Source of the DNA: Parcubacteria group bacterium
Lineage (GTDB): Bacteria > Patescibacteriota > Minisyncoccia > Moranbacterales > GCA-2747515
DNA length: 64,000 bases
Assembly (NCBI GenBank): GCA_041660065.1
Contig: JBAZXC010000001.1
Coordinates: forward strand, 136,535 to 200,534
Direction of reading: 5' to 3'
This document shows, piece by piece, positions 21,403 through 51,989 of the stretch (positions are counted from its first letter, which is position 1; every line of letters starts with the position of its first letter). Under the pieces are notes generated by a model. The model ran no database searches. It saw only the letters and a list, made by a program, of their open reading frames with translations, and was not told where the DNA came from. The translations under genes and the position numbers were made by a program.

Positions 21403-21462
21403 AATTGTGCCAGAGGTAGTTATTTATCTTTTTCCAAAAAAACAGACGTCATTGCGAGGAGG

Positions 21463-21533
21463 AACGACGAAGCAATCTTGAGCATTGTACAAAAAACGGT
21501 CTATGCATATGAGATTGCTTCGTCGTCCCTTTT
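21463..21533. repeat. 70-bp hairpin element: 15-bp perfect inverted repeat ACGACGAAGCAATCT…AGATTGCTTCGTCGT around a 33-nt loop; a related copy lies in the island at 47005-47058
   Basis: Read directly. The island copy (rc) reads GCGAGGAGcGGAACGA[agtgtagcga]CGAAGCAATCTcGAtCATTG, against GCGAGGAGGAACGACGAAGCAATCTtGAgCATTG here. Confidence 0.5.
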
Positions 21534-22050
21534 CCCGCAAAAGGTGGCAGGCGCAATGACAAAGGCGAAGATCTCAGATATACTTTTTATAAAAAGGCGA
21601 ATGGCGATCGTTGGAGATATTGCGCGATCACGCAGGTGCGCTTACACTAAAGGGAGATAAATAATATGATGTATCTGTGAAAAAAGGCATACTAAAAATA
21701 ATTGTTTTTTTCTGTTATATATCTATCCGACAATCGCAACAAAAGAGCGGGCGCAAAAATTACTGTTGCTGTTGATGCAAGACGTATGACAAGCCGGTTT
21801 TTTATAACACGATATTCAACAATTGTACGAATGCGATTACACGACGCGTAGAGGATATTTCCGACGTTAAATTTCCGCTGACATATCGGATGCTTCTTCC
21901 GGGATTTGTCGATGAGATCCTCTATAAAGAGCAGTTGATTCCACATGACGGATCGTATGATCAGACCAAGGAAAACTATCGGGTAACGAATGATCGCATT
22001 GTGCCGAGTGATCCGGATTTTTCCACAATAATTCGTCAAGGGAAAAAGTA

Positions 22051-26907: not shown

Positions 26908-27272
26908 TTGGAAGATCATCAGGTGACAGCTCTACGGAGAGGAAAGTCCGGACACCTCGTGTCTTTATTGACACGTATAAATGGTAGCGGGTAACGCCCG
27001 TCCAGAGTGATCTGCGAGGTGCGAACAGGAACGGTTTTTTCGCGAGAAAAAACCATCCCGCATGTATATGCGGGATGATGCCCTATGGCAACATGGGGAG
27101 TGAAACGGCTAAATCCTTACTCAGGTGCAAGATCGTGTCACGCACCCCAAAATAGTGAAAATGTTTACTATTTTGGGGTGCGTGAAGAATCGCAAAGATG
27201 TTTATGGCAACATAAACACAAGACAGATTGTCATCCCAATGACAGAATCCGGCTTATCGATGATCTTCCAAT
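26908..27272 (+). ncRNA. rnpB: RNase P RNA (bacterial type A)
   Basis: P4 5' strand GGAGAGGAAAGTCCGGACACC. GGTAACGCC (P10/11). GNRA-capped helices. P4 3' strand ACAGAATCCGGCTTATCG. P1 is formed by GGAAGATCAT (26909-26918) pairing with ATGATCTTCC (27260-27269). Two track ORFs (26800..26994, 27085..27279) overlap it and are spurious. Confidence 0.85.
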
Positions 27273-38415: not shown

Positions 38416-41382
38416 ATGGAGCGATACGAACATCAAAAGATCGAGGCAAAATGGCGAGAAGCGTGGACTGCTGCCAATGTGTACAAAACGACAGAGGATC
38501 CGAAAAAAGAGAAATTCTACATTCTCGATATGTTTCCGTATCCGTCAGGTGACGGTTTGCACGTAGGTCATCCCAAGGGATACATTGCAACAGATGTGAT
38601 CTCGCGGTACAAAAAAATGAATAACTTCAATGTATTGCATCCGATGGGGTGGGATGCTTTTGGACTTCCGGCAGAGCAATATGCACTCAAAAATAAAATG
38701 CACCCAAAGATCGCGACAGATCACAATATTGCAACGTTTAAAAAGCAGTTAGAAAAGATCTCGCTGAACTATGATTGGGAACGAGAGATTTCCACAATAG
38801 ATCCATCGTTTTACAAATGGACCCAGTGGACGTTTATCCGCATGTTCAAAAAAGGATTGGTGTTTCAATCCAATGAGCCGATCAACTGGTGTCCGTCATG
38901 CAAGACGGGACTTGCCAATGAGGATCTGGAAAATGGTGCGTGTGAACGATGTGGTACGCCGATCGAAAAGAAAAAGATCCCGCAATGGGTGATCAAGATC
39001 ACGGATTATGCGGACAGACTTCTCGCTGATCTGGATAAACTTGAATGGCAAGATCACATCAAAGAATTGCAACGCAATTGGATCGGACGATCAGAGGGTG
39101 CAAAAATTCAATTCAAAATTACATGTCATCCTGAACTTGTTTCAGGATCTCAAACGAATGAACAGTTATATATTGACGTATTTACCACGCGTCCGGATAC
39201 GCTTTTTGGTGCAACCTATATGGTACTCGCTCCTGAACATCCACTTGTTGATAAATTTCTCTCTTGTCATGCTGAACTTGTTTCAGCATCTCAGGCTGAT
39301 GCAAAAGAGATCCTGAAACAAGTTCAGGATGACAAAAAAAACTGTTATTGTGCTATTTTAAATGATGGCGAAGTTCGACAATATCAAAAACAAACGCTTA
39401 CAAAGACAGAGATCGAGCGCACGACAGAAGGACGAGAAAAAACCGGTGTGAAGCTCGAGGGTGTGATGGCGATCAATCCTGCGAATGGTGCGGAGATCCC
39501 GATCTACATCGCGGATTATGTCTTGGCTGATTATGGCACAGGCGCGATCATGGCGGTGCCGGCACACGATGAAAGGGATTGGGAGTTTGCAAAGAGATAT
39601 GATATTCCGATCGTGCAAGTGGTTGCCGAACTGGATGAAACCAAAGGAAAGTATACGGTACGTGATGATAAGAAAAGTGAAGAGCGACGTAGTATCACTG
39701 TCATTATCAAGCATTGGGCAGAGGATAGATATTATTGTCTCGATTGGCGAAAATCTGATAATGACTGGACGAGTTTTGTGATCGGCGGAGTTGAGGATGG
39801 TGAGACGATCGAAGAAACGGCAGTGCGTGAGGCGCGAGAGGAAACGGGGTATCAAAATATGCGTGTCGTGCGTCGTGTAGGTCAGGTGATCCGCAGTCGA
39901 TTTTTTGCAGCGCACAAAGATATCAATATGAAAGACGCGGTACGTGAGTGTGTCTATCTCGAACTCATAGACGATGCATTTATTGCACCGGATGAAAAGC
40001 ATACAAAAAATCATGATGGCATGTGGATAGAAAAAGAAGACGTTGATGAGTTTCTCAATCTTCCTGCACAAAAAACGTATTGGCGGCAATTTCTCACGGG
40101 TGAAGACGTGTATACTGGTAGTGGCGTGATGATGAATTCCGGAGAGTTTGATGGTATGGATAGTGAAGAAGCTAAAAAGGCAATTACAGAAAAAGTGGGC
40201 GGGGAGATGACGGTGAATTACAAATTGCGCGATTGGGTATTTTCTCGCCAACGATATTGGGGTGAGCCGATCCCGCTCATTCACTGTGCGAAATGTGGTG
40301 TCGTGCCAGTACCGGAAGAAGAACTGCCTTTGACACTTCCTGAAGTTGATAACTATGAACCGACAGGCACGGGCGAGTCACCGCTTGCGGCGATTTCTGA
40401 TTGGGTCAACACAGTTTGTCCCACATGCGGAGGAGAAGCAAAGCGTGAGACCAATACGATGCCACAATGGGCTGGGTCAAGTTGGTATCACCTGCGTTAT
40501 ATCGATCCCAAAAACGATACGGCAATTATTGATAAAGACAAAGATGCATACTGGTCGCCAGTCGATTTTTATGTAGGTGGTGCAGAGCATGCGACGAGAC
40601 ATCTCATCTACGCGCGATTCTGGCACAAGTTCCTCTTTGATATCGGTGCGGTCGCCTATGATGAGCCATACAAAAAATTACAGACAGTCGGACTGATCAT
40701 GGCAGAGGATGGACGCAAGATGTCCAAGCGATGGGGCAATGTGATCAATCCGGATGAAGTGATCGATCGCTTTGGCTCTGATACATTTCGCATGTATGAA
40801 ATGTTCATGGGACCATTTGACGCAACCGTTGCGTGGAGCACGGAGAGTTTGATCGGTCCGCGCAAATTCCTCGAACGTTTGTGGAAATTTTTTGGCAATG
40901 GATTCACCGGCAATTCAGATCCTCAGATCCAGAAAGTATTGCACAAAACGATCAAAAAGGTGGGCGAGGATATCGATGCGATGAAATACAATACAGCGAT
41001 CGCACAGATGATGATCCTCATGAACACAATGGAAAAACACAAAACAATGACAACGGGAGATATGGAGAAATTTCTCCTTATCCTCTCACCGTTCTGTCCG
41101 CACATTACGCAAGAATTATGGTCGCAGTTGGGTCGTGATTCATTCATCTTGCAAGAGCAGTGGCCAATGTATGATGCGGAAAAGATCATCGATGACGAGA
41201 TCACGCTCGCAGTGCAAGTAAACGGCAAAGTGCGCGATCAGATCACCGTGAGTGCGGATATCACAGAAGAGGACGCCAAGGCACAAGCGCTTGCAAGTGA
41301 AAAGATCCAAAAATACACCGCCGGCAAAGACCCAAAAAAGATCATCTTTGTAAAAGGGAAGTTGATTAGTATCGTTGTGTAA
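38416..41382 (+). CDS. leuS: Leucyl-tRNA synthetase with an inserted Nudix hydrolase domain
   Basis: HIGH (HVGHPKGY), CP1 editing domain (TTRPDTLFGATYMVLAPEHP…AVPAHDERDWEFAKRYDIPI), KMSKS (KMSKRWGN), anticodon-binding domain. Between …YDIPIVQVVAE and …NSGEFDGMDSEEAK (E. coli has ~20 aa here) lies a ~160-aa insertion with a perfect Nudix box GGVEDGETIEETAVREAREETGY. Confidence 0.9.
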   Translation: MERYEHQKIEAKWREAWTAANVYKTTEDPKKEKFYILDMFPYPSGDGLHVGHPKGYIATDVISRYKKMNNFNVLHPMGWDAFGLPAEQYALKNKMHPKIATDHNIATFKKQLEKISLNYDWEREISTIDPSFYKWTQWTFIRMFKKGLVFQSNEPINWCPSCKTGLANEDLENGACERCGTPIEKKKIPQWVIKITDYADRLLADLDKLEWQDHIKELQRNWIGRSEGAKIQFKITCHPELVSGSQTNEQLYIDVFTTRPDTLFGATYMVLAPEHPLVDKFLSCHAELVSASQADAKEILKQVQDDKKNCYCAILNDGEVRQYQKQTLTKTEIERTTEGREKTGVKLEGVMAINPANGAEIPIYIADYVLADYGTGAIMAVPAHDERDWEFAKRYDIPIVQVVAELDETKGKYTVRDDKKSEERRSITVIIKHWAEDRYYCLDWRKSDNDWTSFVIGGVEDGETIEETAVREAREETGYQNMRVVRRVGQVIRSRFFAAHKDINMKDAVRECVYLELIDDAFIAPDEKHTKNHDGMWIEKEDVDEFLNLPAQKTYWRQFLTGEDVYTGSGVMMNSGEFDGMDSEEAKKAITEKVGGEMTVNYKLRDWVFSRQRYWGEPIPLIHCAKCGVVPVPEEELPLTLPEVDNYEPTGTGESPLAAISDWVNTVCPTCGGEAKRETNTMPQWAGSSWYHLRYIDPKNDTAIIDKDKDAYWSPVDFYVGGAEHATRHLIYARFWHKFLFDIGAVAYDEPYKKLQTVGLIMAEDGRKMSKRWGNVINPDEVIDRFGSDTFRMYEMFMGPFDATVAWSTESLIGPRKFLERLWKFFGNGFTGNSDPQIQKVLHKTIKKVGEDIDAMKYNTAIAQMMILMNTMEKHKTMTTGDMEKFLLILSPFCPHITQELWSQLGRDSFILQEQWPMYDAEKIIDDEITLAVQVNGKVRDQITVSADITEEDAKAQALASEKIQKYTAGKDPKKIIFVKGKLISIVV

Positions 41383-41389
41383 TTATTTT

Positions 41390-41416
41390 AAGCACCTCAA
41401 AAGAGGTGTTTTAAAA
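41390..41416 (+). terminator. Rho-independent terminator after leuS
   Basis: GCACCTC-aaaa-GAGGTGT followed by TTT. Confidence 0.55.
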
Positions 41417-41607
41417 TTATTTTTCATAACGTATCCGAATATGAGAAGTTTTTGACTTCAAATAGTTTTAAAATTTGTAAGAATTGATACAAAATTTTCG
41501 TCTGATATTTTTTGAAACGATTATCGGTAAATGGGTTGGAATATTTTTCTTTCAAATCTATGCTTTCTGCATAAATTGCCATGTGAAACAAAAAGGAATG
41601 ATAATCA

Positions 41608-42312
41608 TCAATTTTCAACGTGATATTTTTTAACAATCATCCTATTAAAATTTTCCTTGCCGTTTTTGCCGGGAACCAGTTTAATCGTATAATCGTCTAT
41701 AAAAATTTCTCCCCTCATGTTAGGCGCCGATAAAACAAATGACTGATATTCGCCGCTTTCAGCGGCCGGATCTATGCCCTGGGATTGAAGCTCATTAACT
41801 AGTGCAGAGTTAATTTCTCTTCCAATATAATCTTTTGATAGGTTGCCTTCTCTTATACTCAAAATAACTGATTTAATTCTGTTGGATATTACGGAATTCA
41901 TATAGTTAGCACCTTTTTCCCTCGAAGAGCATGCATCTCGAGATGGCCTGATTATCTCAACCCCCAAAGCACCAGCAAGCATATCTCCAATGCCTGAGGT
42001 ATACGGATGCCATAAGTCGCCAGTAACAATGTGAGTTATTTTGTCTTGAATTATTAATTTATTTAATTCGACAAATAATTCATGCAGGTATAAGTTATTT
42101 GAATTGATTATTATTTCTTTGTGCGGCAGGCCAATTAAGCTTAATTGCGTTTTTCTTAATTTCTCATCGGCTTCCGGACCGGCATGCAATTGAGTATCGC
42201 CGATCGGCGATTTGATGCTCACTAAATATTCAATGTCATTCATTTCCCGCGCTCTTATTAAGGAATAAAAGCTATCTTTCCCTCCGCTAAATAATACGAT
42301 TGTTTTTCTCAT
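41608..42312 (-). CDS. PP-loop ATPase of the MJ0570/Dph6 (diphthine-ammonia ligase-like) family
   Basis: MRKTIVLFSGGKDSFYSLIRA… carries the SGGKDS PP-loop, followed by …IVTGDLWHPYTS…. The track extends it to a TTG at 42420; the ATG at 42312 is preferred. Confidence 0.6.
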   Translation of the reverse strand: MRKTIVLFSGGKDSFYSLIRAREMNDIEYLVSIKSPIGDTQLHAGPEADEKLRKTQLSLIGLPHKEIIINSNNLYLHELFVELNKLIIQDKITHIVTGDLWHPYTSGIGDMLAGALGVEIIRPSRDACSSREKGANYMNSVISNRIKSVILSIREGNLSKDYIGREINSALVNELQSQGIDPAAESGEYQSFVLSAPNMRGEIFIDDYTIKLVPGKNGKENFNRMIVKKYHVEN

Positions 42313-42507
42313 AATTTTATCCGTTTTTTCTACGACCAAAGAAGCATAAAAACACCTTTTCCCCTTTATAAAAAAATTAAAAATCAAATTTTCGTCCCTG
42401 TTCAAATCACAAATCTTCAAACTATCGCCAAGATAAAAAATTTATTTCGCCACAACGTATCGCAATGTCCGACGTTTGCCTTAGCGAATGTGGCTTTATT
42501 TTTTTCC

Positions 42508-43530
42508 TTATTTTTCTCCAGTCGGTAAAGATTTTACAAATTTATCAAAATCCGATTCTATTGACTGTGTTTTATTATATTCATCATATTCTTGAAATGC
42601 TTTTTGTTCTGCTTGGGCGCGAGAAATCGTGCCTTTTCCCTCAAGCACTTCATACTTATTAAACTCCAAAAAGTTGTTCACGGACTCCGCCAATTTTTCC
42701 ATCGTAAGAGCAGTGCGATTTTCAATCAGTCTTTCGATGTAATCAAAATAGCCGACGATGCCTCTTTCTAGTTTCTTTATTTTATCCTCAGTAAGATAAT
42801 TTTTGGCAATAATTGTGTCTGATTTCAGAATTCTGCTCTTTGGCGAATTTTTCCAAGTCTTGAGTCCCATGAAAGGTTTTTGCTTGTCTACTGTTTCATA
42901 AACAATCTCAGCTGCGGTTTTGCCGGTAATGGCAAAATGAAATTTATTTTGGATCATTGCATAAAAATTCTTGGCAATTTCTGACGTGGGGCTATAATCC
43001 ATGCTACATTCAGCAAAAATATCCGTAATTTGCTGATAAATTTTTCTCTCACTGGCACGAATAGAACGGACTCTTTCCAAGAGTTCGAGAAAGTAATCTT
43101 TGTCGAAATATCTTCCGTTCTTTAATCTCTCATCATCCATGGTGAAACCTTTGATGATGTATTCCTTAAGCCTTTCCGTTGCCCAAATACGAAACTGAGT
43201 GGCTTGCGATGAGTTTACCCGATAGCCAACCGAAATAATGGCATCAAGATTATAGAACTTTGTTTGGTATTTTTTGCCATCATTGGCAGTGTATTCCAAA
43301 ATGGAATGAACTGAATTTTCCAGCAATTCGCCACTTTCAAAGATATTCTTTAAATGCTTAGCAATAGCTGGTTGTTGCACACCAAACAATCTGGCCATCT
43401 TATCTTGGTTAAGCCAAATATTTTCGTCATGAAAGTAAATTTCCACTTTTACCTTGCCACTTGGCGCTGTGTAAAGCAGAAATTCCGTCAGTTCGTCTTT
43501 GATGGTGATTTGGTGATTATTTTTAGTCAT
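42508..43530 (-). CDS. RhuM-family protein (virulence/mobile-element-associated DNA-binding family)
   Basis: …KVKVEIYFHDENIWLNQDKMARLFGVQQPAIAKHLKNIFESGEL…YNLDAIISVGYRVNSSQATQFRIWATERLKEYIIKGFTMDDERLK… is a strong RhuM signature. Confidence 0.8.
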   Translation of the reverse strand: MTKNNHQITIKDELTEFLLYTAPSGKVKVEIYFHDENIWLNQDKMARLFGVQQPAIAKHLKNIFESGELLENSVHSILEYTANDGKKYQTKFYNLDAIISVGYRVNSSQATQFRIWATERLKEYIIKGFTMDDERLKNGRYFDKDYFLELLERVRSIRASERKIYQQITDIFAECSMDYSPTSEIAKNFYAMIQNKFHFAITGKTAAEIVYETVDKQKPFMGLKTWKNSPKSRILKSDTIIAKNYLTEDKIKKLERGIVGYFDYIERLIENRTALTMEKLAESVNNFLEFNKYEVLEGKGTISRAQAEQKAFQEYDEYNKTQSIESDFDKFVKSLPTGEK

Positions 43531-43565
43531 ATTATCTTAGGCATTAGATCTTCCATAAATTTGTT

Positions 43566-43627
43566 AATATTCGCCTATCTTGATTATATCACCAAACTTG
43601 CTATTTTGTCAGCGCAATTTGCCTGCC
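43566..43627 (-). promoter_or_regulatory. Promoter module for rhuM (minus strand: CTGACA-18-TGATATAAT extended -10); ~60-bp module repeated at 46848-46910
   Basis: The rc of 43581-43627 is AGGCAGGCAAATTGCGCTGACAAAATAGCAAGTTTGGTGATATAATCA. The second copy upstream of ORF 46029..46796 shares TGATTATATCACyAAACTTtGCT.TTG.C..GCGCAATTTGyCTGCCT. Confidence 0.5.
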
Positions 43628-43901
43628 TGCCGGTGGGCAGGGGAGAGTCCCGATATCCGTTATTATGTATCAAGTGAAAAATCGGGGATGACGCATTTGC
43701 ATCACCCCCGTTGTTGTGAGATGAGATCAAGTGTCTCTTTCCCTAGGCCATTCTCACCCGGCCAAAGGTTTTCGCCTTTCTGCTGTTTACCCGCTGGGTC
43801 GGAGTCGTCATTTCTCCTCCGCATGGGGTAGCTTGGTCTGGCCGCTTGTAAGGGAACAGCAGTTATTCCTTGCAACAGGATCAGGGTGCGTTAGGTGAAC
43901 C
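43621..43901 (+). ncRNA. Candidate structured non-coding RNA of unknown class (GC-rich, multiple hairpins, ends in intrinsic terminator)
   Basis: A ~280-nt segment at about 55% GC inside a ~32% GC island. No credible ORF on either strand. Hairpins include CCTGCC/GGCAGG, CCCGAT/ATCGGG, GGGGATG/CATC(a)CCCC, AAAGG/CCTTT, CGGAG/CTCCG, and TTGTAAGGGA/TCCTTGCAA with a GAACAGCAGTTAT loop. It ends with ATCAGG-gtgcgttaggtgaa-CCTGAT plus TTTTTT (43870-43901). I could not match it to RNase P, SRP, tmRNA, 6S or rRNA consensus. Confidence 0.3.
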
Positions 43902-44410
43902 TGATTTTTTATCCTATTGAGTTATTAACAACAAGCAGCATACCATCCTAGCGCCAATTAGACGAAAATTCTATAACTATCCGTATGAATCACCTCCTTT
44001 TTGTTCAGAATTTTTCTAAAAATATTTTTCATAACGTTTAAGAATAAAAGAAGTCACACGCCGACTAAAAACGTAAAGCTTATCCTATCCTCGAAACTTG
44101 TTAAATAGCACTGGCTCTATTATATCACAGAACTAAGGCGAGGGATTTGGAAAAATTCCGAGCCGAGGCCATTTTACTTTTATTCTTTGTTAGGCGAGGG
44201 TTTGATTTTTTTCCTTGATGTAAGAAATATAAAATAAAAAATCAAAAGCGTGGCGTCCCCTTAAGTTTTAAAGAAAAAATTTTGTTATTTTTAGTTTATA
44301 AAAGACATTTTTCTTAATATTGACACCACATAATAAATTTGATTAAATTAAGCATAGCTCTACACACAAGATGTGCATAAACTAGAAGTCCTAGCCGAAA
44401 GGAGACTAAG

Positions 44411-44575
44411 ATGGGAAATCTTGAAGAGTACTATGACAAGGACTACGGCAGACGGTATTATAAGCTAACAGCCGAAGCAGAAAGGAAAAAGCGACAAAAA
44501 GAAAAAAGGGAGGAGGAGGAACTAAAGCAAAAGGGGACGTGGCCTCACGGTATGCCCTGGGGAGGGAAAAAATAA
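44411..44575 (+). CDS. Small basic hypothetical protein (54 aa)
   Basis: TTGACA-17-TTAAAT promoter at 44322. AAAGGAGA RBS 7 nt upstream of the ATG. Translation MGNLEEYYDKDYGRRYYKLTAEAERKKRQKEKREEEELKQKGTWPHGMPWGGKK. An intrinsic terminator follows at 44620-44655. Confidence 0.35.
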   Translation: MGNLEEYYDKDYGRRYYKLTAEAERKKRQKEKREEEELKQKGTWPHGMPWGGKK

Positions 44576-44619
44576 GACCATGCCACGGATGGTATTATCT
44601 CTTGGAGAAACTATCTTAC

Positions 44620-44655
44620 CGCCAATACACCAAAAAGGTTGAGGCGGTTTTTTCT
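44620..44655 (+). terminator. Rho-independent terminator
   Basis: CCGCC-aatacaccaaaaaggttga-GGCGG followed by TTTTTTCTTTG. Confidence 0.5.
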
Positions 44656-44715
44656 TTGTAAAAAATTTCAAAAAATGGCTGTAAAAAAATAAAATTTAAG
44701 GGCAAAGTCATATTT

Positions 44716-44898
44716 TTATTGGTATGTACAAATATAACTAGAGGTTTCTTTTGCTACGATAGCAAATGGCGCACCTAGCTTGACTACAACTTTTTGACCT
44801 GGCAAACACGGTTCATTATTGATTTCCAACGAACCTGTTAAGCATTGTATGGTTTCTTCACGATCAGGCGTAAAAGTATAATTGCCAGGCTCGACCAC
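44716..44898 (-). pseudogene. C-terminal fragment of a cupin (cupin_3/DUF861-like) protein
   Basis: …EPGNYTFTPDREETIQCLTGSLEINNEPCLPGQKVVVKLGAPFAIVAKETSSYICTY matches the C-terminal ~60 aa of small cupins. An in-frame stop lies immediately upstream, so the N-terminal half is missing. Confidence 0.3.
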
Positions 44899-44921
44899 TT
44901 AGCCCTTGCGGATATCGAGTG

Positions 44922-45437
44922 TTATCGGATGTAATTAAAATTTTTATATTCCTTATGAAGTATGTTTTTAGGTCTGTGTTTACCTTCAGATTGATTTAAT
45001 ATTTTTTTAAACTGCACATTGTCTAGAGTAACAGAACCAAAAAGCTGTATTAAAATTGAAGCCAGCGCGAGTACCGAAGAAATTACAATTGCGAAAAGTG
45101 CCATGTTTTTTGCCGTTTTCGATGATCTTAATGCCTCTCTGAATTCACGATAATCAATATAATTGAAGAAAGCATCGTGATTGAGAATAAATTTATCATT
45201 CTCAATATTTAAAAACATTGTATTTCGTACCGGGAGCATTCCACCATGTCCTTCACGATCAGTATGTACGAATTGCCCGCCATTTAACGTATCACTAATT
45301 TGCTTATTGACAATTTTTTTCTCCCAGTCATTTAGGTCAAGATTTTTTTCTAATTCTTCTTGGGTAAAACCGTCTGGATTTTTATATCCAAATTCAGATA
45401 TTCTTATGTATAAATTTTTTTCTTCTGGGTGTTGCAT
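44922..45437 (-). CDS. Hypothetical protein with C-terminal TM helix
   Basis: 171 aa, AT-rich. No family recognised. Confidence 0.4.
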   Translation of the reverse strand: MQHPEEKNLYIRISEFGYKNPDGFTQEELEKNLDLNDWEKKIVNKQISDTLNGGQFVHTDREGHGGMLPVRNTMFLNIENDKFILNHDAFFNYIDYREFREALRSSKTAKNMALFAIVISSVLALASILIQLFGSVTLDNVQFKKILNQSEGKHRPKNILHKEYKNFNYIR

Positions 45438-45570
45438 TTTTTATTAAAAGAAAGATAAAAATTTTAATTATTTCATAACGTATTGGCATCATGCGAGGTG
45501 CAAAGCATTTGGGTGAAGCGTAGCGGAGCCGGATATGCCGTGTTGTGCGATGTAAATTTTTATAATCCAC

Positions 45571-45978
45571 TTATTTAAATGGCTTAAAACCTTGTTTAAT
45601 CAGATTCTGCTGGGGAATAAATAGGGGTTGGGGTGGGTTAGTCCAATCAAACCATGACCATTGTTCACATTTTTTTGGTTCCATAATTTGCAAATCGCCC
45701 GATTCATATTCAGCAGTCATAAATATAGTGATGTAGTGTTTACCTTCAATCGGAAAAATGTCGTTGGTAGCAGCGACAAAGTTTACATTTTTAATGCTCA
45801 AGCCAGTTTCTTCCAAAGTTTCACGTGCCGCACATTCTTCCCATGACTCATTAAATTCAAGGTGACCACCAGGAAAACACCACGAACCGTCACCGTGAGC
45901 ATTTTTACGTTTACCAAAGAGAACTTTGCCATCTTTTAAAACGAGAACTCCAATTCCGACTTTTGGTCTATTTTCCAT
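45571..45978 (-). CDS. Nudix hydrolase (MutT-like)
   Basis: Nudix box GGHLEFNESWEECAARETLEETGL (G-x5-E-x7-REUxEExGU). Confidence 0.8.
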   Translation of the reverse strand: MENRPKVGIGVLVLKDGKVLFGKRKNAHGDGSWCFPGGHLEFNESWEECAARETLEETGLSIKNVNFVAATNDIFPIEGKHYITIFMTAEYESGDLQIMEPKKCEQWSWFDWTNPPQPLFIPQQNLIKQGFKPFK

Positions 45979-46028
45979 ACGTTCAAATATTATTTCCTTA
46001 TTATTAAGTGGGGTAGGACTTTATTAAT

Positions 46029-46796
46029 TTATTTTTCAACAAAATAAACTCCGATGTGTTTGTCGTACAAAAGCTCATCTAAGAGAATTATAATTTTTTC
46101 TGAAATTTTATTTCCTTCTTTAATGTCTTCTTTTGTTAATTCACGACCATGAAATATTTCACCTCTTTTTTGACTGAAATATTGTATCGCTAAATATAAC
46201 TCCTTATCGATTATACCACTTTTGAAGAGGTTTCTGCTTTGATTTAAAACTGATCGATTTCTAAGTTCATCATTTTTTGAAGCCAATGAAAGCTCATTTA
46301 GATTTTCCTGGATTTTTTTATAATTCAGAAAAAATTTATATAAATACCGGCTTAAGTCTGGAATAATTTCTTCATCTTTTTCTGTTTTAACTTTTTTATC
46401 TATTGTAACACCCTTGGTTTTATCGTCTAAATATTTTTTCAACTCCTCAACCTCTTTTTTGTCAAATGGGTGAGTGATAACCTGAACACTTTGTTGCTGG
46501 TTTACAGTAGAAATAATGGTATTTTGTAGTGAAGCAAATTTTTCAATAGTCTCGTGCCTCAAACTTTCAATGTCTTTTTTTATTTTTAAAACATTTAAAA
46601 TACTCAGCTCACTAACTAGTGGCAGCAAGACAACAGATACTATGACAATAAAAAGCATGTTACTAAAAAAGTCTCCTTTGATTGAAAAAATATTGGCTTG
46701 GTAAAGGATAAATACAATAGCTAACAAAATGAATGCTATCAGATTGTACCAGTTCTTTGTATTCATAAAATAAATTAATAAAGCCTCATTTTTCAT
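46029..46796 (-). CDS. Hypothetical membrane protein (2 N-terminal TM helices, coiled-coil middle)
   Basis: 255 aa. Its start codon lies inside the repeated leader element TTTTCATAACGTATCCGAATAT (46790-46811). Confidence 0.45.
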   Translation of the reverse strand: MKNEALLIYFMNTKNWYNLIAFILLAIVFILYQANIFSIKGDFFSNMLFIVIVSVVLLPLVSELSILNVLKIKKDIESLRHETIEKFASLQNTIISTVNQQQSVQVITHPFDKKEVEELKKYLDDKTKGVTIDKKVKTEKDEEIIPDLSRYLYKFFLNYKKIQENLNELSLASKNDELRNRSVLNQSRNLFKSGIIDKELYLAIQYFSQKRGEIFHGRELTKEDIKEGNKISEKIIILLDELLYDKHIGVYFVEK

Positions 46797-46847
46797 AACG
46801 TATCCGAATATCTGAGGTTGCGCCCGTGTTTAATGGCTAAAACTTCA

Positions 46848-46910
46848 AACATTCTCTTATTGTGATTATATCACTAAACTTTGCTTTGCCGAAGCGCAAT
46901 TTGTCTGCCT
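46848..46910 (-). promoter_or_regulatory. Second copy of the ~60-bp promoter module (minus-strand TGATATAAT) driving ORF 46029..46796
   Basis: See the element at 43566-43627. A partial third copy (CTATTATATCACAG, 44116-44129) faces a 24-codon minus-strand ORF that starts in leader-repeat copy B. Confidence 0.45.
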
Positions 46911-47163
46911 ATGACGATTTGTGTGCCACCGCTAAAGCTTTAGCGACACGCGGTCGGCCGTAGTCCTGCCTACCGGTAGGTAGGCAATCTCACTTAGGTG
47001 TTCTGTTTTTCGTGCAATGATCGAGATTGCTTCGTCGCTACACTTCGTTCCGCTCCTCGCAAAGACTATGGTACAGCGCTTGACTAATGGTAATTAATAT
47101 TATAACCTAATGTAAATACTTGAACGAATAGCATCAAACGAAACCAATGGATAGGAGGAAAAT

Positions 47164-47361
47164 ATGTGCGACAGGAAAGATGTATATAAACTTGTTGAGG
47201 CAATTGCGCGCGCTAAAATGCATTTGAGTGTTAAGCAGATGGATCATTCAAAAGAGTGCAATGCAAGTGAAGGAAGAGGTTGTATTTGTGGAGCTGAAAG
47301 AGTGAATGATGCAATAAAAAAAGCAACAGAGGAATTATCTATTGATAGAATGAAATTCTAA
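47164..47361 (+). CDS. Small hypothetical protein (65 aa, Cys-x-Cys motif)
   Basis: GGAGG RBS 7 nt upstream of the ATG. A TTGACT promoter-like sequence lies upstream. The protein contains …GRGCICGAERV…. Confidence 0.35.
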   Translation: MCDRKDVYKLVEAIARAKMHLSVKQMDHSKECNASEGRGCICGAERVNDAIKKATEELSIDRMKF

Positions 47362-47456
47362 TCGTAGTACATTGATTGTGCTAAAACCATCTCGGTCCAC
47401 TGGTAATAAACAGTGGACTTTTTTATATAAGTATCAAAAGGGCTATATATGATGTA

Positions 47457-49770
47457 CATGTTTTCCTTTAATTCGCCGAAGGCGGATTGCTCTTAAAAAG
47501 AATTCAATTTTGTTATTTTGTTTTGGGGAAAGGGCAGAGGAGTTAGGGGTGAATGCCCTTACACCAAAAATCCTTATTATAATTTTTGCATATCACTTAT
47601 TTCATTTTCGATTTTTGTTATTTCAGCCTGAAGTTTTTCGTATAATTTAAAATCAAACTTTTCCTTACTATATAATTTAATTTTACACTTTTCTTTTTGT
47701 ATACAAATATATTGAATGGGATTAAAAGTTTTTTCTTGCCATATTGAAACCGCGTATATTACAAGAAGGGGTATCAACCCCATTATGTATGTTAAGGGCT
47801 CAATTTTATTCCATCCAAATTTTGAAATAATATATACCCAACCTATGAAATAAATAAGTAGCAAAAAGACCGGTGTAAGTTTATACCTTAAGTAAATCTG
47901 TTTGTTGATTTTTTTATCAAATTTATTTTTGGCATCTTCAAGATAAGAAAAATTATTACGCTTTTCTGATAATAATTCCATTTTTATTTTCATGGTTTCG
48001 GTTATAAGTTTTTTTTCTGTATCACCTTGTTTTTTTATTTGATTATCTAAGAGGAGGTTTATACTTTCAACTTCTTTTTTTAGTTGTGTGTTTTCTTCCT
48101 CATGTTTTTTTGCTTTATTTTTAAAATGCTCTTGTTCTTCAATAATTTTGTCTAAATTATTTTCAGCCAATGATTCTAAAATAAAAGATATATTATCATT
48201 CATGATATCTTCAGGTTTTTTTGCCTGCTTTCTTAAGTTGGTAATGGCAAGCGCGACTTGATTATCGTTAAGTTTGCCATTTTTAAATCTTTTTTGTAAC
48301 TCATCAAATTTATTTCCTACCGATTTGTTTAATTGGCTTGAAAGCAGAATCTGAGCTTTTGTTATTACATCAAAAATCTTAGGAAAAGTATTTGTTCCAA
48401 AACCTTTATTCAATTTAAACCAAAATTTGTCAGTTAAAAAGTGTAAAGAGGTAGCCAGGGGGACTTCTCCCGATTTTCTAATGCTTTTATGCCACGCAAC
48501 TTGTAGGGTGGTGTTATTGCCTGATAGAAGTATGTATTTAATATGTTCAAAATTATTATTATATTCATCGGCTCTCTTGATGCTTACGAAGTTAAGTAAC
48601 TCAAGGTTATCTTTAATTTCATTTACGCCAATAGACGCTGCGATTGATTGTTCAATGTTTTCTTCTGCTTTATGAAAAGTTATGTTGTATTTATGATTTT
48701 CTTTTTCATAGTAATTTAGATAATCATCTGCATGAATGTCATTTTTGTTTAATAAGTCAAAAAATATAGTTTTTTTCTCTACAACATCGCTCTTGCTCTT
48801 GCTGCCATTAAGTATGTTATTCATTGCTGGACGCCCTGGGTCAACAACCTCTCCTCCAGATATTATGTATTCTGCTTTTGAAAAATAATTGTGAATATTT
48901 TCTTCAGTCTTTAAAAAATATCTTAGTTTAATAAGTGGTTCCGAAGCTTTCTGGTTTATCTCTTTTACGAATGAATGAAATTCATCAAACAAAGACTTGA
49001 ATAGTTCTCCATTAAAACCAGCAAAATCAAATAAAATTTCTGTATCAAGAAAAATGGTTAATTTCGTATTCCATGAGCCAACGTTACCAATGTTGTCACT
49101 AAACATTATGCCTGTATACAAAACAACCCCTTCTTTTATGCTTTGTAATCTATTGATAAAATCTGGGTTTGGGCTTTTGCTTATTATGAATGCACTGATA
49201 TATTCTGAATATTTTTGATTATTTGATTTATCAAGTAGAAATGAGCAAAAGGAATGCATTATTTCTTTTTTATCAGTCTCGTTTATTTCTTGCTTTTTTT
49301 GAGAAGAAATAAAATCTACTATTTGTTCTATTATTTCATTATTACCTTTAGTAATTTCATCTTTTTTAGGAATAAGGCTCGGGCTTTTAATATTTGATAA
49401 ATTTGCAAAGTATTTGCCTTGGTCTTTGTTTAAAAATTCTTTTAGACGACCTAGCGAAGTTTTTACAACGGCCTCAGGTATATGAAAATTAAAGGTGTCA
49501 TTCAACAAATATGTTATTTCCTGTAAAGTGAAACTGTATTTGGCCTCAGTTATAATTATTTCTTGAAGAAAGCATGAAAGCACACCATATACATCTTTTT
49601 CACTGTCATAAAGTTCTTTAAACAAGGCTAGAGATGCTATTCGACCACTTTCTTCATTAATATTTTCCATAGAAATAAATTAAATAAATTCCTTATTCCC
49701 CTTATTAATTAATAAAAAAACAAAATTGAATTCTTTTTAAGAGCTGGGCGAAGCCCAAAAGGAAAACATG
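47457..49770. mobile_element. 2.3-kb cassette bounded by ~52-bp imperfect terminal inverted repeats, carrying a single 697-aa ORF (no transposase recognised)
   Basis: Left IR 47457-47514 is CATGTTTTCCTTTAATTCGCCGAAGGCGGATTGCTCTTAAAAAGAATTCAATTTTGTT. Right IR 49719-49770 is AACAAAATTGAATTCTTTTTAAGAGCTGGGCGAAGCCCAAAAGGAAAACATG. The outer 26 nt and inner 12 nt are identical. The centres are different small hairpins. Confidence 0.45.
47577..49670 (-). CDS. Hypothetical 697-aa protein: N-terminal globular region, long coiled coil, C-terminal two-helix membrane anchor
   Basis: A 210-nt window at 32% GC preceded the ORF call. The C-terminal region …LTPVFLLLIYFIGWVYIISKFGW…LTYIMGLIPLLVIYAVSIW… forms two TM helices. 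The preceding coiled coil is …NTQLKKEVESINLLLDNQIKKQ…. The N-terminal part contains …NTKLTIFLDTEILFDFAG… (PIN-like? unverified). Confidence 0.55.
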   Translation of the reverse strand: MENINEESGRIASLALFKELYDSEKDVYGVLSCFLQEIIITEAKYSFTLQEITYLLNDTFNFHIPEAVVKTSLGRLKEFLNKDQGKYFANLSNIKSPSLIPKKDEITKGNNEIIEQIVDFISSQKKQEINETDKKEIMHSFCSFLLDKSNNQKYSEYISAFIISKSPNPDFINRLQSIKEGVVLYTGIMFSDNIGNVGSWNTKLTIFLDTEILFDFAGFNGELFKSLFDEFHSFVKEINQKASEPLIKLRYFLKTEENIHNYFSKAEYIISGGEVVDPGRPAMNNILNGSKSKSDVVEKKTIFFDLLNKNDIHADDYLNYYEKENHKYNITFHKAEENIEQSIAASIGVNEIKDNLELLNFVSIKRADEYNNNFEHIKYILLSGNNTTLQVAWHKSIRKSGEVPLATSLHFLTDKFWFKLNKGFGTNTFPKIFDVITKAQILLSSQLNKSVGNKFDELQKRFKNGKLNDNQVALAITNLRKQAKKPEDIMNDNISFILESLAENNLDKIIEEQEHFKNKAKKHEEENTQLKKEVESINLLLDNQIKKQGDTEKKLITETMKIKMELLSEKRNNFSYLEDAKNKFDKKINKQIYLRYKLTPVFLLLIYFIGWVYIISKFGWNKIEPLTYIMGLIPLLVIYAVSIWQEKTFNPIQYICIQKEKCKIKLYSKEKFDFKLYEKLQAEITKIENEISDMQKL

Positions 49771-49949
49771 TATTCCATATAACTGGTTATCATGCAAAAT
49801 TTCAATCGTATAATAGCTCAAATTTGTATGTTATGCGAACATTTGGTATCACTTCTCATATTTGATCTATGGGCAAAATATACCATATTATTTATGAGTC
49901 TCCAAGTTCGTTGCTGGTTGATTTCTTGCACAAACGGTTGATGTATGGT

Positions 49950-50200
49950 ACAGTGTGAAGTACGATGCCGATGAAACTGCTGACACAGTGGAGGCAAAAG
50001 GAAGAAATTTTGTCGCAAAACGATTGAAAGAGTAGAACCTTTCGGGTATGCCCGTTATAGCAAACTGATAAAGTGAGTGATCCGCAATACACTGTGATCA
50101 CTAAAAACGGTGGTACCACGGTTTTTTACCAAAAAAGATCGTCCGTTGGGAGCAAATACGTTTGTTTTCGGCGGACGGTTTTTTGGTCACAAATCTTATC
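49950..50200 (+). promoter_or_regulatory. T-box riboswitch leader of aspS (candidate Asp GAC specifier)
   Basis: AGTAGA box (50030-50035). F-box CCCGTTA (50051-50057). T-box core AAAAACGGTGGTACCACGG (50103-50121). Terminator hairpin CGTCCG…CGGACG plus TTTTTT (50143-50190). Candidate specifier GAC followed by A at 49982-49985. The track's N-terminal extension of aspS (50073-50216) is this leader translated. Confidence 0.5.
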
Positions 50201-50216
50201 TGGTAAGAATAAAAAT

Positions 50217-51989
50217 ATGCTACGAACACATACATGTGGAGAATTAACACATAAAGATATCGGACAAAAAGTTACCTTGTCCGGCTGGGTGCATCGTCGC
50301 CGTGATCATGGCGGTGTGATCTTCATCGATCTGCGTGATCGCTATGGATTGACGCAAATCACGTTCAATCCAGAGCGCGGTGCGGATGTGCATGCGCATG
50401 CGGACAAATTACGCAATGAATGGGTAATTCAAGTGGAGGGAGAAGTCATCGCGCGTCCGGATGATATGATCAACAAAAATCTCCAGACAGGTGAGATCGA
50501 GATCGAGATCAGTGCGCTTGTTGTCCTCAATAAGTCCAAGACGCCACCGTTTGAAATCGGCGATGATAAACTTGAAGCCAATGAAGCGATCCGTCTCAAG
50601 TATCGGTATTTGGACTTGCGTCGCTCGAAATTGCAAAACATGCTTGTGCAAAAAGACAAATTTATCAGCGACATACGCACATTTTTCCATGCGAAAGGTT
50701 TTTGTGAAGTGCAAACGCCGATCCTCGCGAACTCGTCACCGGAAGGTGCGCGAGATTGGCTTATTCCATCTCGCTTATACCATGGGAAGTTTTATGCATT
50801 GCCACAAGCACCGCAACAGTTCAAGCAATTATTGATGGTGGGCGGTGTGGACAAGTATTTCCAGATCGCGCCGTGTTTTCGTGATGAGGATCCGCGGATG
50901 GATCGTCACTTCGGTGAGTTTTATCAGTTGGATTTTGAGATGAGCTTTGTGGAGCAGGCGGATATTTTTGCACTGATGCAAGAATTGTGGATCGATCTGA
51001 CGAAAAAATACAGTACAAAAACACTTGTCTTTACCGATTTCCCGCAGATTCCATGGAAGGATGCGATGAACCGTTATGGGTCCGACAAACCGGATTTGCG
51101 ATTTGATCTCGAAATCGTTGACGTATCGCATCTTGTCAAAGAGTGTTGTTTTGCCGTCTTTGGCAAAGCATGCGAAAGTGGCGGCGTGGTGCATGCGTTG
51201 AAAGTGGATGGTGGCGGTACGGCATTCTCCCGCAAAAATATCGATGATCTCACAGAGTTAGCCAAGACAAAGGGCGCGAAGGGATTAGCATACATTGTTG
51301 TCAAAGAAAACGAATTACAGTCACCGATCGTGAAATTCCTCGGTGAAGATGTGGCACAAGCAATTGTTGTACATGTAAAAGCGCGTCCGGGTGACATCAT
51401 CTTTTTTGGTGCGGACTCATGGCGTGTTGTGTGCGAGAGTTTGGGTGTGGTACGCAACAAATGTGGCGATATGCTCGGACTCAAAGATCCGACAAAAGCG
51501 GCGTGGGCCTGGGTTGTGGATTTCCCGATGTATGATTACTCGGAGATCGAGGATGGACGCATTGATTTTTCTCATAATCCTTTTTCTATGCCACAAGGTG
51601 GAATGGAAGCACTTACTACTCAGGATCCGATGGATATTGTGGCGTATCAATTTGATCTTGTACTCAACGGCTTTGAGGTCTCAAGCGGAGCGATTCGTAA
51701 CCATGATCCTGAGATCATGTATGCGGCATTTGCGATCGCGGGGTATAGCAGAGAAGATGTTGATGCAAAATTCGGACACATGGTGGAAGCATTTAAGTAT
51801 GGTGCGCCGCCACATGGTGGCAGTGCGCCGGGAATCGACCGTGCGTTTATGGTGTTGACTGACTGTGATTCGATCCGTGATATCTATGCGTTTCCCAAAG
51901 ATGGGCAAGGACGCGATGCGATGCTGGATTCACCGTCGTTTGTTGATCCAAAGCAATTGGAAGAACTGGGGATCAAGATCGTGGAATAA
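50217..51989 (+). CDS. aspS: Aspartyl-tRNA synthetase
   Basis: MLRTHTCGELTHKDIGQKVTLSGWVHRRRDHGGVIFIDLRDRYG… (compare E. coli [43 protein letters not shown]). Class II motifs 1-3 (…FRDED…, …GGSAPGIDR…). Confidence 0.9.
   Translation: MLRTHTCGELTHKDIGQKVTLSGWVHRRRDHGGVIFIDLRDRYGLTQITFNPERGADVHAHADKLRNEWVIQVEGEVIARPDDMINKNLQTGEIEIEISALVVLNKSKTPPFEIGDDKLEANEAIRLKYRYLDLRRSKLQNMLVQKDKFISDIRTFFHAKGFCEVQTPILANSSPEGARDWLIPSRLYHGKFYALPQAPQQFKQLLMVGGVDKYFQIAPCFRDEDPRMDRHFGEFYQLDFEMSFVEQADIFALMQELWIDLTKKYSTKTLVFTDFPQIPWKDAMNRYGSDKPDLRFDLEIVDVSHLVKECCFAVFGKACESGGVVHALKVDGGGTAFSRKNIDDLTELAKTKGAKGLAYIVVKENELQSPIVKFLGEDVAQAIVVHVKARPGDIIFFGADSWRVVCESLGVVRNKCGDMLGLKDPTKAAWAWVVDFPMYDYSEIEDGRIDFSHNPFSMPQGGMEALTTQDPMDIVAYQFDLVLNGFEVSSGAIRNHDPEIMYAAFAIAGYSREDVDAKFGHMVEAFKYGAPPHGGSAPGIDRAFMVLTDCDSIRDIYAFPKDGQGRDAMLDSPSFVDPKQLEELGIKIVE

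Follow-up and report, generated by a model that had tools for sequence, protein, structure and literature searches.

Among the systems described so far, integron attC sites and attC-site clusters without an integrase (CALIN) come closest to the structured repeat and the gene island reported here. For integrons, cassettes without an open reading frame (ORF) are known as well as cassettes carrying a promoter of their own, cmlA1 being an example of the latter. The subject of this work is a GC-rich stretch (43621-43901) which resides within a low-GC island of a 64,000-nt stretch of DNA; the latter, at its full length, is referred to as the window, and all coordinates given without a locus label are window positions. 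In an earlier note, the GC-rich stretch had been taken for a single structured non-coding RNA (ncRNA) gene of the plus strand. The present analysis identifies it as a composite, i.e., as the junction of two units of an array and not as one plus-strand RNA gene, whereby its left third belongs to a structured repeat of the Patescibacteria and roughly its right two-thirds to a candidate RNA module on the opposite strand. In the island, minus-strand genes form an array, and copies or fragments of this 75-200-nt repeat, all in one orientation, lie between them. With about evenly balanced confidence, the flagged stretch is considered to be a repeat remnant (43554-43727) joined to an ORF-less module (43728 to about 44021), which probably is a structured minus-strand RNA. 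The likeness to attC sites and CALIN arrays concerns the repeat and the island, not the GC-rich block of this module.

The island (41400-50000) comprises 8.6 kb, is located between the genes of leucyl-tRNA synthetase (LeuRS, 38416-41382) and aspartyl-tRNA synthetase (AspRS, 50073-51989) and has, as stated in the earlier note, a GC content of ~32%, that of the host genome being ~44%. The window stems from a Parcubacteria genome, its LeuRS being 100% identical to a protein of a Parcubacteria metagenome-assembled genome. The GC anomaly of the stretch was likewise reproduced, with 52-53% GC over 43611-43905 and values of 0.515-0.535 in 200-nt windows at 43600-43899 as compared to 0.26-0.39 in neighbouring windows, and its description as devoid of any plausible ORF was found to be correct, the ORFs of 48-107 aa encountered there arising mechanically and none of them being conserved among the homologues. 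Its absence from known RNA families was confirmed by a cmscan-type check, in which no Rfam family matched the stretch: Rfam 15 in gathering mode returned RNase P (26911-27272) as the sole match of the whole window, and searching both strands of 43400-44400 at E<=10 gave nothing but noise at E>=0.18, far under the thresholds. The families covered without a match comprise the signal recognition particle (SRP) RNA, tmRNA, 6S RNA, GOLLD, ROOL, HEARO, OLE, raiA, riboswitches and ribozymes. Rfam found nothing at the block of the homologues L072 and L080 described below, and ARAGORN identified neither a tRNA nor a tmRNA in the stretch. Several known elements were considered and rejected. The plus strand has UGUUUACC in common with 4.5S RNA, yet an SRP RNA would require the GGAA-loop helix 8 motif, which is missing along with an Rfam match, and a resemblance to the thiamine pyrophosphate riboswitch (GAACCUGAU) comes without CUGAGA and again without an Rfam match. 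A template of a diversity-generating retroelement or a retron was dismissed, the window containing neither a second copy of the block nor a reverse transcriptase, and so was a phage or plasmid origin, as blastn in 'distant' mode returned no match and both the repeat motif and the 21-mer of the block are absent from IMG/VR. Scans of viral sequences with single motifs gave chance matches only for two half motifs of the repeat, and for sub-motifs of the block one bare-word match and none.

The repeat, to which the left part of the stretch belongs, folds into a three-helix junction consisting of a closing stem (P0/P1) and the helices P2 and P3. At site A, the core of a decayed, promoter-bearing copy was identified at 43554..43621 on the plus strand by an nhmmer profile built from 20 full copies (E=1.4e-17, profile positions 44-111), the motif of this site being GATTATATCAC-N19-GCGCAATTTG. 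The copy lacks the 5' strands of P0, P1 and P2, the space of which is filled by the rhuM leader, and it has kept its promoter: the sigma-70 promoter of rhuM (minus strand, 43612->43583; CTGACA, an 18-nt spacer and a TG-extended TATAAT, with 11/12 matches plus the TG in the promoter scan) resides inside the repeat and adjoins the stretch, as had been noted before. A 20-nt palindrome (CCTGCCTGCCGGTGGGCAGG, 43622..43641) is inserted precisely where GCGCAATTTG of the repeat would meet GGAGAG. The plus-strand segment that follows (43642..43727), when read by eye against the copy in L019 and the class-1 consensus, would represent the diverged P3 and terminus of the site A repeat: GAGTCCCGAT...ATCGGGGATGA would be a P3-like hairpin, and GTTGTTGTGAGATGA, which resembles GTGTTGTGCGATGT, would be what is left of the terminus and of the 3' strand of P1. 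The repeat profile gives this segment no score with nhmmer. The decayed copy is suggested to supply the TG-extended sigma-70 promoter of rhuM and to have acquired the 20-nt palindromic insertion.

The right part belongs to an ORF-less module of ~340 nt, which extends on the minus strand from about 44021 to 43683 and of which copies with 80-82% identity were found in two other metagenomic loci (three contigs). Searching the JGI metagenomes with a 19-mer from 43780-43798 resulted in 13 loci, 2 of which are real and 11 of which are chance matches to the bare word. L072 is 82% identical over 43686-44028 (346 nt), whilst L080 (80% identity, other strand) is ended by the contig edge; L081, which was reached through its protein neighbours, is the same locus as L080 with the module complete (nhmmer E=2.6e-63). 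The module occurs in Parcubacteria and Moranbacteria. Its 5' part (43966..44021, minus strand) comprises the conserved UUUUAGAAAAAUUCU (44007-44021), the Shine-Dalgarno sequence AAGGAGGUGA (43990-43999) and a degenerate mini-ORF of 8 codons ending at a conserved UAA, which reads MLHAMITV in L072 and MYHLLASA in L081 (each ATG...stop) and is without its ATG in the window. In the sense of the minus-strand RNA, these elements are followed by the conserved UAAUUGGCGC, by ~250 nt of helices and by a GC-rich hairpin. The conserved GC-rich block (43728..43965, minus strand), itself ORF-less, adopts a predicted multi-helix fold that is closed by UUGYUG/CAGCAG and contains the invariant 21-mer GACCCAGCGGGUAAACAGCAG. 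The copies are ~93% identical at 43760-43870 and diverge in the flanks, loops and junctions of the module being better conserved than the latter, and compensatory changes are seen in which, for example, AAAGG/CCUUU becomes GAAGG/CCUUC or a G-C pair becomes U-A. A protein-coding gene or pseudogene was rejected, since each of the six frames contains stops in the three homologues, indels break the frames and the substitutions at the codon positions (11/6/5) show no clear 3-nt periodicity. Of the earlier proposal of a candidate novel ncRNA, that part stands which refers to 43728-43905 (continuing to about 43965-44021) as conserved, ORF-less, unknown to Rfam and marked by few compensatory changes, whereas the proposed strand, ends and unity are incorrect.

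In the window and in L072 the module is placed like a cassette, with a repeat copy upstream and a repeat remnant downstream. In L081 it is located 60 nt ahead of the gene of a 135-aa membrane protein heading an efflux operon; close relatives of this locus (L083, L085) are without it, and in one of them the gene of an extracytoplasmic function (ECF) sigma factor directly precedes the membrane-protein gene. Relatives of rhuM at 84-94% identity have only the ORF in common, none of them possessing the module. Being absent from relatives of both the L081 locus and rhuM, the module behaves as an independent, mobile, non-coding unit. Of the four module-bearing contigs, three have a break no more than ~130 nt away from the module, a hint of repeated sequence. 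As a mobile ~340-nt module not represented in Rfam, it is a testable candidate for a new class of RNA, and we know of hardly any regulatory RNA from organisms of the candidate phyla radiation (CPR).

On the minus strand, an intrinsic terminator was called by the terminator scan at 43683..43710 (a stem of 12 bp, 8 of them G-C pairs, a loop of 4 nt and the tail AUUUUUCAC), the stem being followed by AUUUUU in the window. L072 keeps the hairpin via changes that pair only on the minus strand (G-C to U.G, U.G to U-A), and L080/L081 possess at the same place a hairpin of unrelated sequence with a U-rich tail, whereby the counterpart in L080 was called by the scan. Upstream of the module, a second and degenerate repeat copy of the direct repeat family D1 (44025..44140, plus strand; weak nhmmer match, E=0.23 at 44094-44134) contains on the minus strand, at 44119-44129, a TG-extended -10 element (TGTGATATAAT) that may serve as promoter of the module. 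Transcription of the module, its functional strand and any role it might have are inferred. According to the suggested mechanism, the module would occupy a cassette position in the array, with the extended -10 (44119-44129) probably serving its minus-strand transcription; the transcript would have ~330-440 nt, depending on where it begins, and its end would coincide with the terminator (43710-43683), directly ahead of the rhuM promoter. At its start this RNA would have the Shine-Dalgarno sequence and the vestigial 8-codon mini-ORF, several helices closed by the long-range UUGYUG/CAGCAG stem would follow, and the terminator may in addition insulate the rhuM promoter from read-through. As a best guess, the module is considered a mobile regulatory module or small RNA (sRNA) module whose terminator insulates rhuM.

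Terminator-ended sRNAs and ORF-less integron cassettes resemble the module in being a few hundred nt long, GC-richer than their surroundings and located between genes, and in combining several hairpins with an intrinsic terminator; in contrast to terminator-ended sRNAs, the module starts with a Shine-Dalgarno sequence and a vestigial mini-ORF, is known in three copies only and belongs to no Rfam family. A number of findings weigh against its interpretation as a functional minus-strand RNA. Compensatory changes affect 6 of 85 predicted pairs in three sequences, a number that is anecdotal as there are only three independent copies of the module, and the covariation term is unfavourable (+2.35). 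The folding energy of the block alone is unremarkable (z=-1.24 on the minus strand, -0.34 on the plus strand), and the window copy, having lost the start codon of the mini-ORF, may be a decaying one. The tail of the L072 hairpin is not U-rich and the hairpin was not called by the terminator scan, whilst the candidate promoter at 44119-44129 has a poor -35 element, was not listed by the promoter scan and has no equivalent in L072, where a promoter-bearing repeat is missing. Finally, at 80-93% identity, recent common descent without function could explain the conservation of the module.

The model of the earlier note, i.e., one ~280-nt structured plus-strand ncRNA (43621-43901) with a terminator of its own and divergent from rhuM, is largely excluded and considered very improbable. 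In its favour, the stretch is GC-rich and ORF-less, Rfam has no family for it, and the plus strand does carry a hairpin with a T6 run behind it (43880..43910). However, this hairpin, which had been described as a canonical terminator, is weak, its 6-bp stem enclosing a loop of 14 nt; it was not called by the terminator scan and is not conserved in L072, where T43881A breaks the stem and the T-run is reduced from 6 to 4 (CTTTT). No plus-strand promoter was found upstream of the stretch by the promoter scan. Nor does the plus strand appear highly structured, its minimum free energy being no better than that of dinucleotide shuffles both for 43611-43912 (z=-0.85) and for the right 188 nt (43725-43912, z=-0.34), whereas folding of the whole stretch on the minus strand gave z=-2.98, a value which, by inspection, mainly results from one terminator hairpin and the 20-nt palindrome; the right part alone reaches z=-1.24. 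The 5' ~110 nt of the proposed RNA consist of an unrelated repeat and the inserted palindrome, and the substitutions in the conserved hairpin of L072 preserve pairing on the minus strand exclusively. The boundaries of the interval could not be upheld either, since it mixes three elements and cuts the module which continues to about 43965-44021. The case is a cautionary one: a GC-rich, hairpin-rich gap within an AT-rich island was read as a single RNA gene, and it actually is a patchwork whose sole good terminator resides on the other strand.

A rather unlikely but more substantial possibility is that the block represents a non-functional relic of mobile DNA, such as an internally deleted insertion sequence (IS) or miniature element, which is conserved only through recent spread; here, a lost gene would survive only as its beginning, i.e., a Shine-Dalgarno sequence plus a few codons, fused to its structured 3' end, possibly the scaffold of a TnpB/IscB-type guide RNA. 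The presence/absence polymorphism between close relatives would be explained in this way, as would the contig breaks near the module, which suggest a multi-copy sequence, the remnant of an 8-codon ORF with its Shine-Dalgarno sequence ahead of the block, the terminal hairpin behind it and the missing ATG of the window copy. Yet, no transposase, TnpB or IscB is found nearby in any of the four contigs, the window holds a single copy, neither terminal inverted repeats nor target duplications were seen at block ends that are blurred by contig breaks, conservation is higher in loops and junctions than in the flanks, and neither IS605-orfB nor HEARO was matched in Rfam. Still less probable is a cis-acting leader, riboswitch-like or of the leader-peptide attenuator type, whose terminator would control read-through into the downstream minus-strand gene. 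In all three loci a gene of the same strand lies within 50-150 nt of the hairpin, and the succession of Shine-Dalgarno sequence, mini-ORF, structure and terminator corresponds to the classical layout of an attenuator; the strong Shine-Dalgarno sequence, a leader ORF of 8-9 codons and a structure ahead of the downstream gene are likewise features of the cmlA/cat-type attenuators. Moreover, by inspection the CAGCAG element is able to pair with two upstream GCUGCU sites, and the operon in L081 encodes an efflux system of the ABC/membrane-fusion protein type. The downstream genes are, however, unrelated (RhuM, an unknown protein and the 135-aa membrane protein), a separate strong promoter is located between terminator and rhuM in the window, and the peptide of the mini-ORF is not conserved and has been lost in the window. 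In addition, the structured part of ~250 nt with its conserved loops is far longer than known leader-peptide attenuators. The reading of the block as a mobile, probably structured minus-strand RNA module is the one that is preferred here.

The distribution of the repeat was derived from a search for the pattern GATTATATCAC-N(17-21)-GCGCAATTTG in one genome per GTDB species, which matched 41 genome loci as compared to ~1-2 expected by chance. Nearly all of these loci are from Patescibacteria, comprising Parcubacteria, Moranbacteria, Falkowbacteria, Kuenenbacteria, Magasanikbacteria and Uhrbacteria. Conservation is sharply bounded, reaching from the motif about 75-95 nt in the upstream and 125 nt in the downstream direction, and the junctions GAAGU, AUUUGGG, GAAC and GUGUUnnnnGAUGU are conserved. 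In the 20 full copies, pairing is observed for 95.7% of cells and 13 pairs are altered on both sides, whilst slid controls gave 3-8 such pairs and shuffles 4.9+-1.3 (0/500). A looser search revealed many additional copies, including miniature forms of 74-131 nt, full copies having 179-202 nt. P1 is variable in sequence (20 different ones among 38 elements), and in 31 of the 38 elements the better-folding strand is the one opposite the flanking ORFs (p=4e-5), which is due to G-U/G-T pairs. The repeat starts with (T/C/G)AACGT in 36/38 elements and ends with TGTTnnnnGATGT in all 38, and in some copies the 5' strand of P1 contains one additional base that is unpaired (GGCATCATCTG opposite CAGATATGCC). 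The P2 loop of 'full' copies contains a TG-extended TATAAT promoter in the opposite direction which points into the next gene, the -10 of this rhuM-type promoter being conserved in all 41 pattern loci. Complete copies gave no match in Rfam. Co-oriented arrays were mapped in L014, L043, L027, L033 and the window island; within arrays the repeats are spaced by 0.3-2.5 kb and always lie on the strand opposite to the ORFs they separate, which are all different (NUDIX, methyltransferase, ABC, HAD, RhuM and others). In 'class 2' copies (L014, L016, L017, L034, L037, L043; e.g., L017 2575-3410), P3 is an inverted repeat of ~45 nt that encloses a plus-strand unit made up of a TTGACA-17-TATACT promoter, an ORF of 53-177 aa and a terminator, i.e., a gene nested in the element; window positions 44640-44700 were listed alongside these copies.

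In 13/41 loci, a tyrosine recombinase of ~275 aa and of the XerA/IntI type is encoded 0.5-2.4 kb from a promoter-bearing repeat copy and divergent from the array, as it is the case for the integron integrase; these loci include L019, L020, L024, L026, L028, L032-L036, L047 and L048 (e.g., L020 3817-4638), and the C-terminus reads ...IKSPL. The enzyme passes the cut-off of NF040815 ('XerA/integron integrase') with 224-234 bits (cut-off 220), whilst with TIGR02249 (integron integrase) it reaches 208-230 bits (cut-off 265) in two pieces with the middle missing, from which it follows that the IntI-specific domain is lacking. No recombinase is encoded in the window. Further likeness to attC arrays is found in the imperfectly palindromic, co-oriented sites that follow each gene or gene pair, in a conserved structure combined with variable stem sequences, in the better-folding strand being opposite the ORFs (the 'bottom strand') and in repeat ends that carry YAAC...GTT. 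With respect to the attC boxes R'' and R' (RYYYAAC / GTTRRRY), the AAC and GTT triplets are present in the repeat, but the full 7-mers fit in some copies only, e.g., GCCTAAC and GTTAGGC. The repeat differs from attC in being a three-helix junction of 74-202 nt with conserved junction sequences, whereas attC sites are simple stems of about 57-141 nt with an unpaired central spacer and a variable terminal structure, and some repeat sites hold a promoter or a whole gene inside a loop. Differences from integrons likewise concern the short recombinase without the extra domain and the finding that rhuM copies have only the ORF in common. The CPR recombinases are grouped in one paper only as 'Cand' Xer-related enzymes (PMC8138268), and no description of integrons in CPR was found in the literature searches made for this work. 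As a tentative proposal, which is regarded as doubtful, Patescibacteria would carry an undescribed integron-like cassette system consisting of a short XerA/IntI-like recombinase, arrays of accessory and defence genes and three-helix sites of 75-200 nt, some with promoters or nested genes; the window island would then be a recombinase-less array and the GC-rich block a cassette that lacks an ORF and encodes structured RNA of a new class. Repeat, arrays and linked recombinase together suggest integron-like shuffling of accessory and defence genes (RhuM, NUDIX, methyltransferases) in CPR, which, if true, would explain how the tiny genomes of these organisms maintain variable gene islands.

Within the window, repeat copies or fragments reside in nearly every gap of the island, starting at 41402, 42421, 43554, 44025, 45465 and 46795. 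Besides the copies at 43554 and 44025, these are a fragment of the repeat 5' end immediately behind LeuRS, at the island's left border (41402..41449, plus strand, direct repeat family D1), a truncated 5' half of a miniature repeat directly 3' of the rhuM stop codon (42421..42470, plus strand; compared by eye with L027:2392-2468), a complete miniature copy with closing stem and junctions and without promoter (45465..45555, plus strand; nhmmer match on the 3' half, pattern search) and site B (46795..47095, plus strand). At the latter, a repeat 5' half (46795-46903, nhmmer E=2e-19) is followed by a GC-rich patchwork, and this GC-rich gap (46893-47095) has about 60 nt in common with the start of the flagged stretch. 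The patchwork contains a variant of the 20-nt palindrome (46956-46975) and a partial palindromic element of the GTCTTTGCGAGGAG...GAAGCAATCTC type that matches 21465-21497; folding of site B gave z values of -1.1 to -1.4. An attC-style test of cassette boundaries did not support exchange at this point, as two window sites have an identical 5' flank, TTTCATAAC, and not one that is complementary to the neighbouring 3' end. A LeuRS relative (78% identical) is followed by ribosomal and mur genes in place of the island, no empty site being definable. Copies of rhuM (L086-L089, 84-88% nucleotide identity to 42508-43530) occur in unrelated neighbourhoods, one relative being located between FtsK/RodZ and RecA and another beside DKNYY, and the homologous sequence reaches precisely from start codon to stop codon and no farther. 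Two small plus-strand ORFs of 54 and 65 aa (44411-44575 and 47164-47361) with good ribosome-binding sites each follow a GC-rich gap, the former being preceded by a predicted promoter (TTGACA-18-TAAATT, 44320-44349); neither has a match in Pfam or PADLOC.

With repetitive extragenic palindromic (REP) sequences, bacterial interspersed mosaic elements (BIME) and repeats of the miniature inverted-repeat transposable element (MITE) type, such as the Rickettsia palindromic elements and the Correia elements, the Patescibacteria repeat shares that it is multi-copy, palindromic, intergenic and sharply bounded, with outward promoters in some cases. Small GC-rich palindromes inserted in other repeats and even in frame in genes, as in LeuRS here, add to this likeness, whereas the strict co-orientation of the repeat in arrays and its tie to a tyrosine recombinase, with no RAYT or transposase seen, set it apart. 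The 20-nt palindrome of site A is itself distributed widely: the near-identical CCTGCCTGCCGGTAGGCAGG occurs unchanged in 13 IMG/VR loci (12 unrelated viral contigs, L051-L063) of 33-70% GC, and in L027 (4222-4241) the palindrome occupies the corresponding position of a diverged copy of the repeat. Viral copies are almost always preceded by G and often lie 12-32 nt upstream of an opposite-strand start codon; in L056/L057 the palindrome resides inside another repeat, uninterrupted copies of which are nearby. It looks like a tiny inserted element of very wide spread. A further GC-rich palindromic element, GTCATTGCGAGGAG..CGACGAAGCAATCT / AGATTGCTTCGTCG..CGCAATGAC, is complete in an intergenic region at 21437-21550 and partial in site B (47005-47060); comparable stretches of the GCGAGGAGCGAAGCGA type adjoin the repeat at its 5' end in several loci outside the window (L020, L023, L029, L048). 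The LeuRS gene harbours at 39124-39348 three in-frame copies of TGTCATCCTGAACTTGTTTCAGGATCTCA, two direct and one inverted, and LeuRS possesses a NUDIX domain insertion (aa 446-545) that is common to most of its closest CPR homologues.

Other elements were encountered in and around the arrays. Two-segment inverted repeats of ~75 bp on each side (47446-47522 and 49711-49781; segments of 24 nt with 88% and of 34 nt with 94% complementarity) flank an unknown minus-strand gene of 697 aa (47577-49670), and gene and inverted repeats could form an invertible or transposable unit. An operon conserved in Moranbacteria (L081 386-3293, L085 1-3300) comprises genes for an ECF sigma factor, for the 135-aa membrane protein, which may be an anti-sigma factor, for a protein of 177 aa, for a membrane-fusion protein resembling YknX and for an ABC ATPase; breaks of contigs are found repeatedly just ahead of the 135-aa gene. 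A recurrent hairpin with the loop motif GAGGGGTCAGGGGTGAA, e.g., GGGCAGAGGAGTTAGGGGTGAATGCCC, is located ~100 nt past the repeat 3' end in many Patescibacteria loci; it was observed at 47525-47560 of the window, in the class-1 loci L012, L022, L023, L035, L040 and L046 and in L056/L057, and its core GGAGAGGGGTTGGGGGTGAGG is also repeated in viral contigs.

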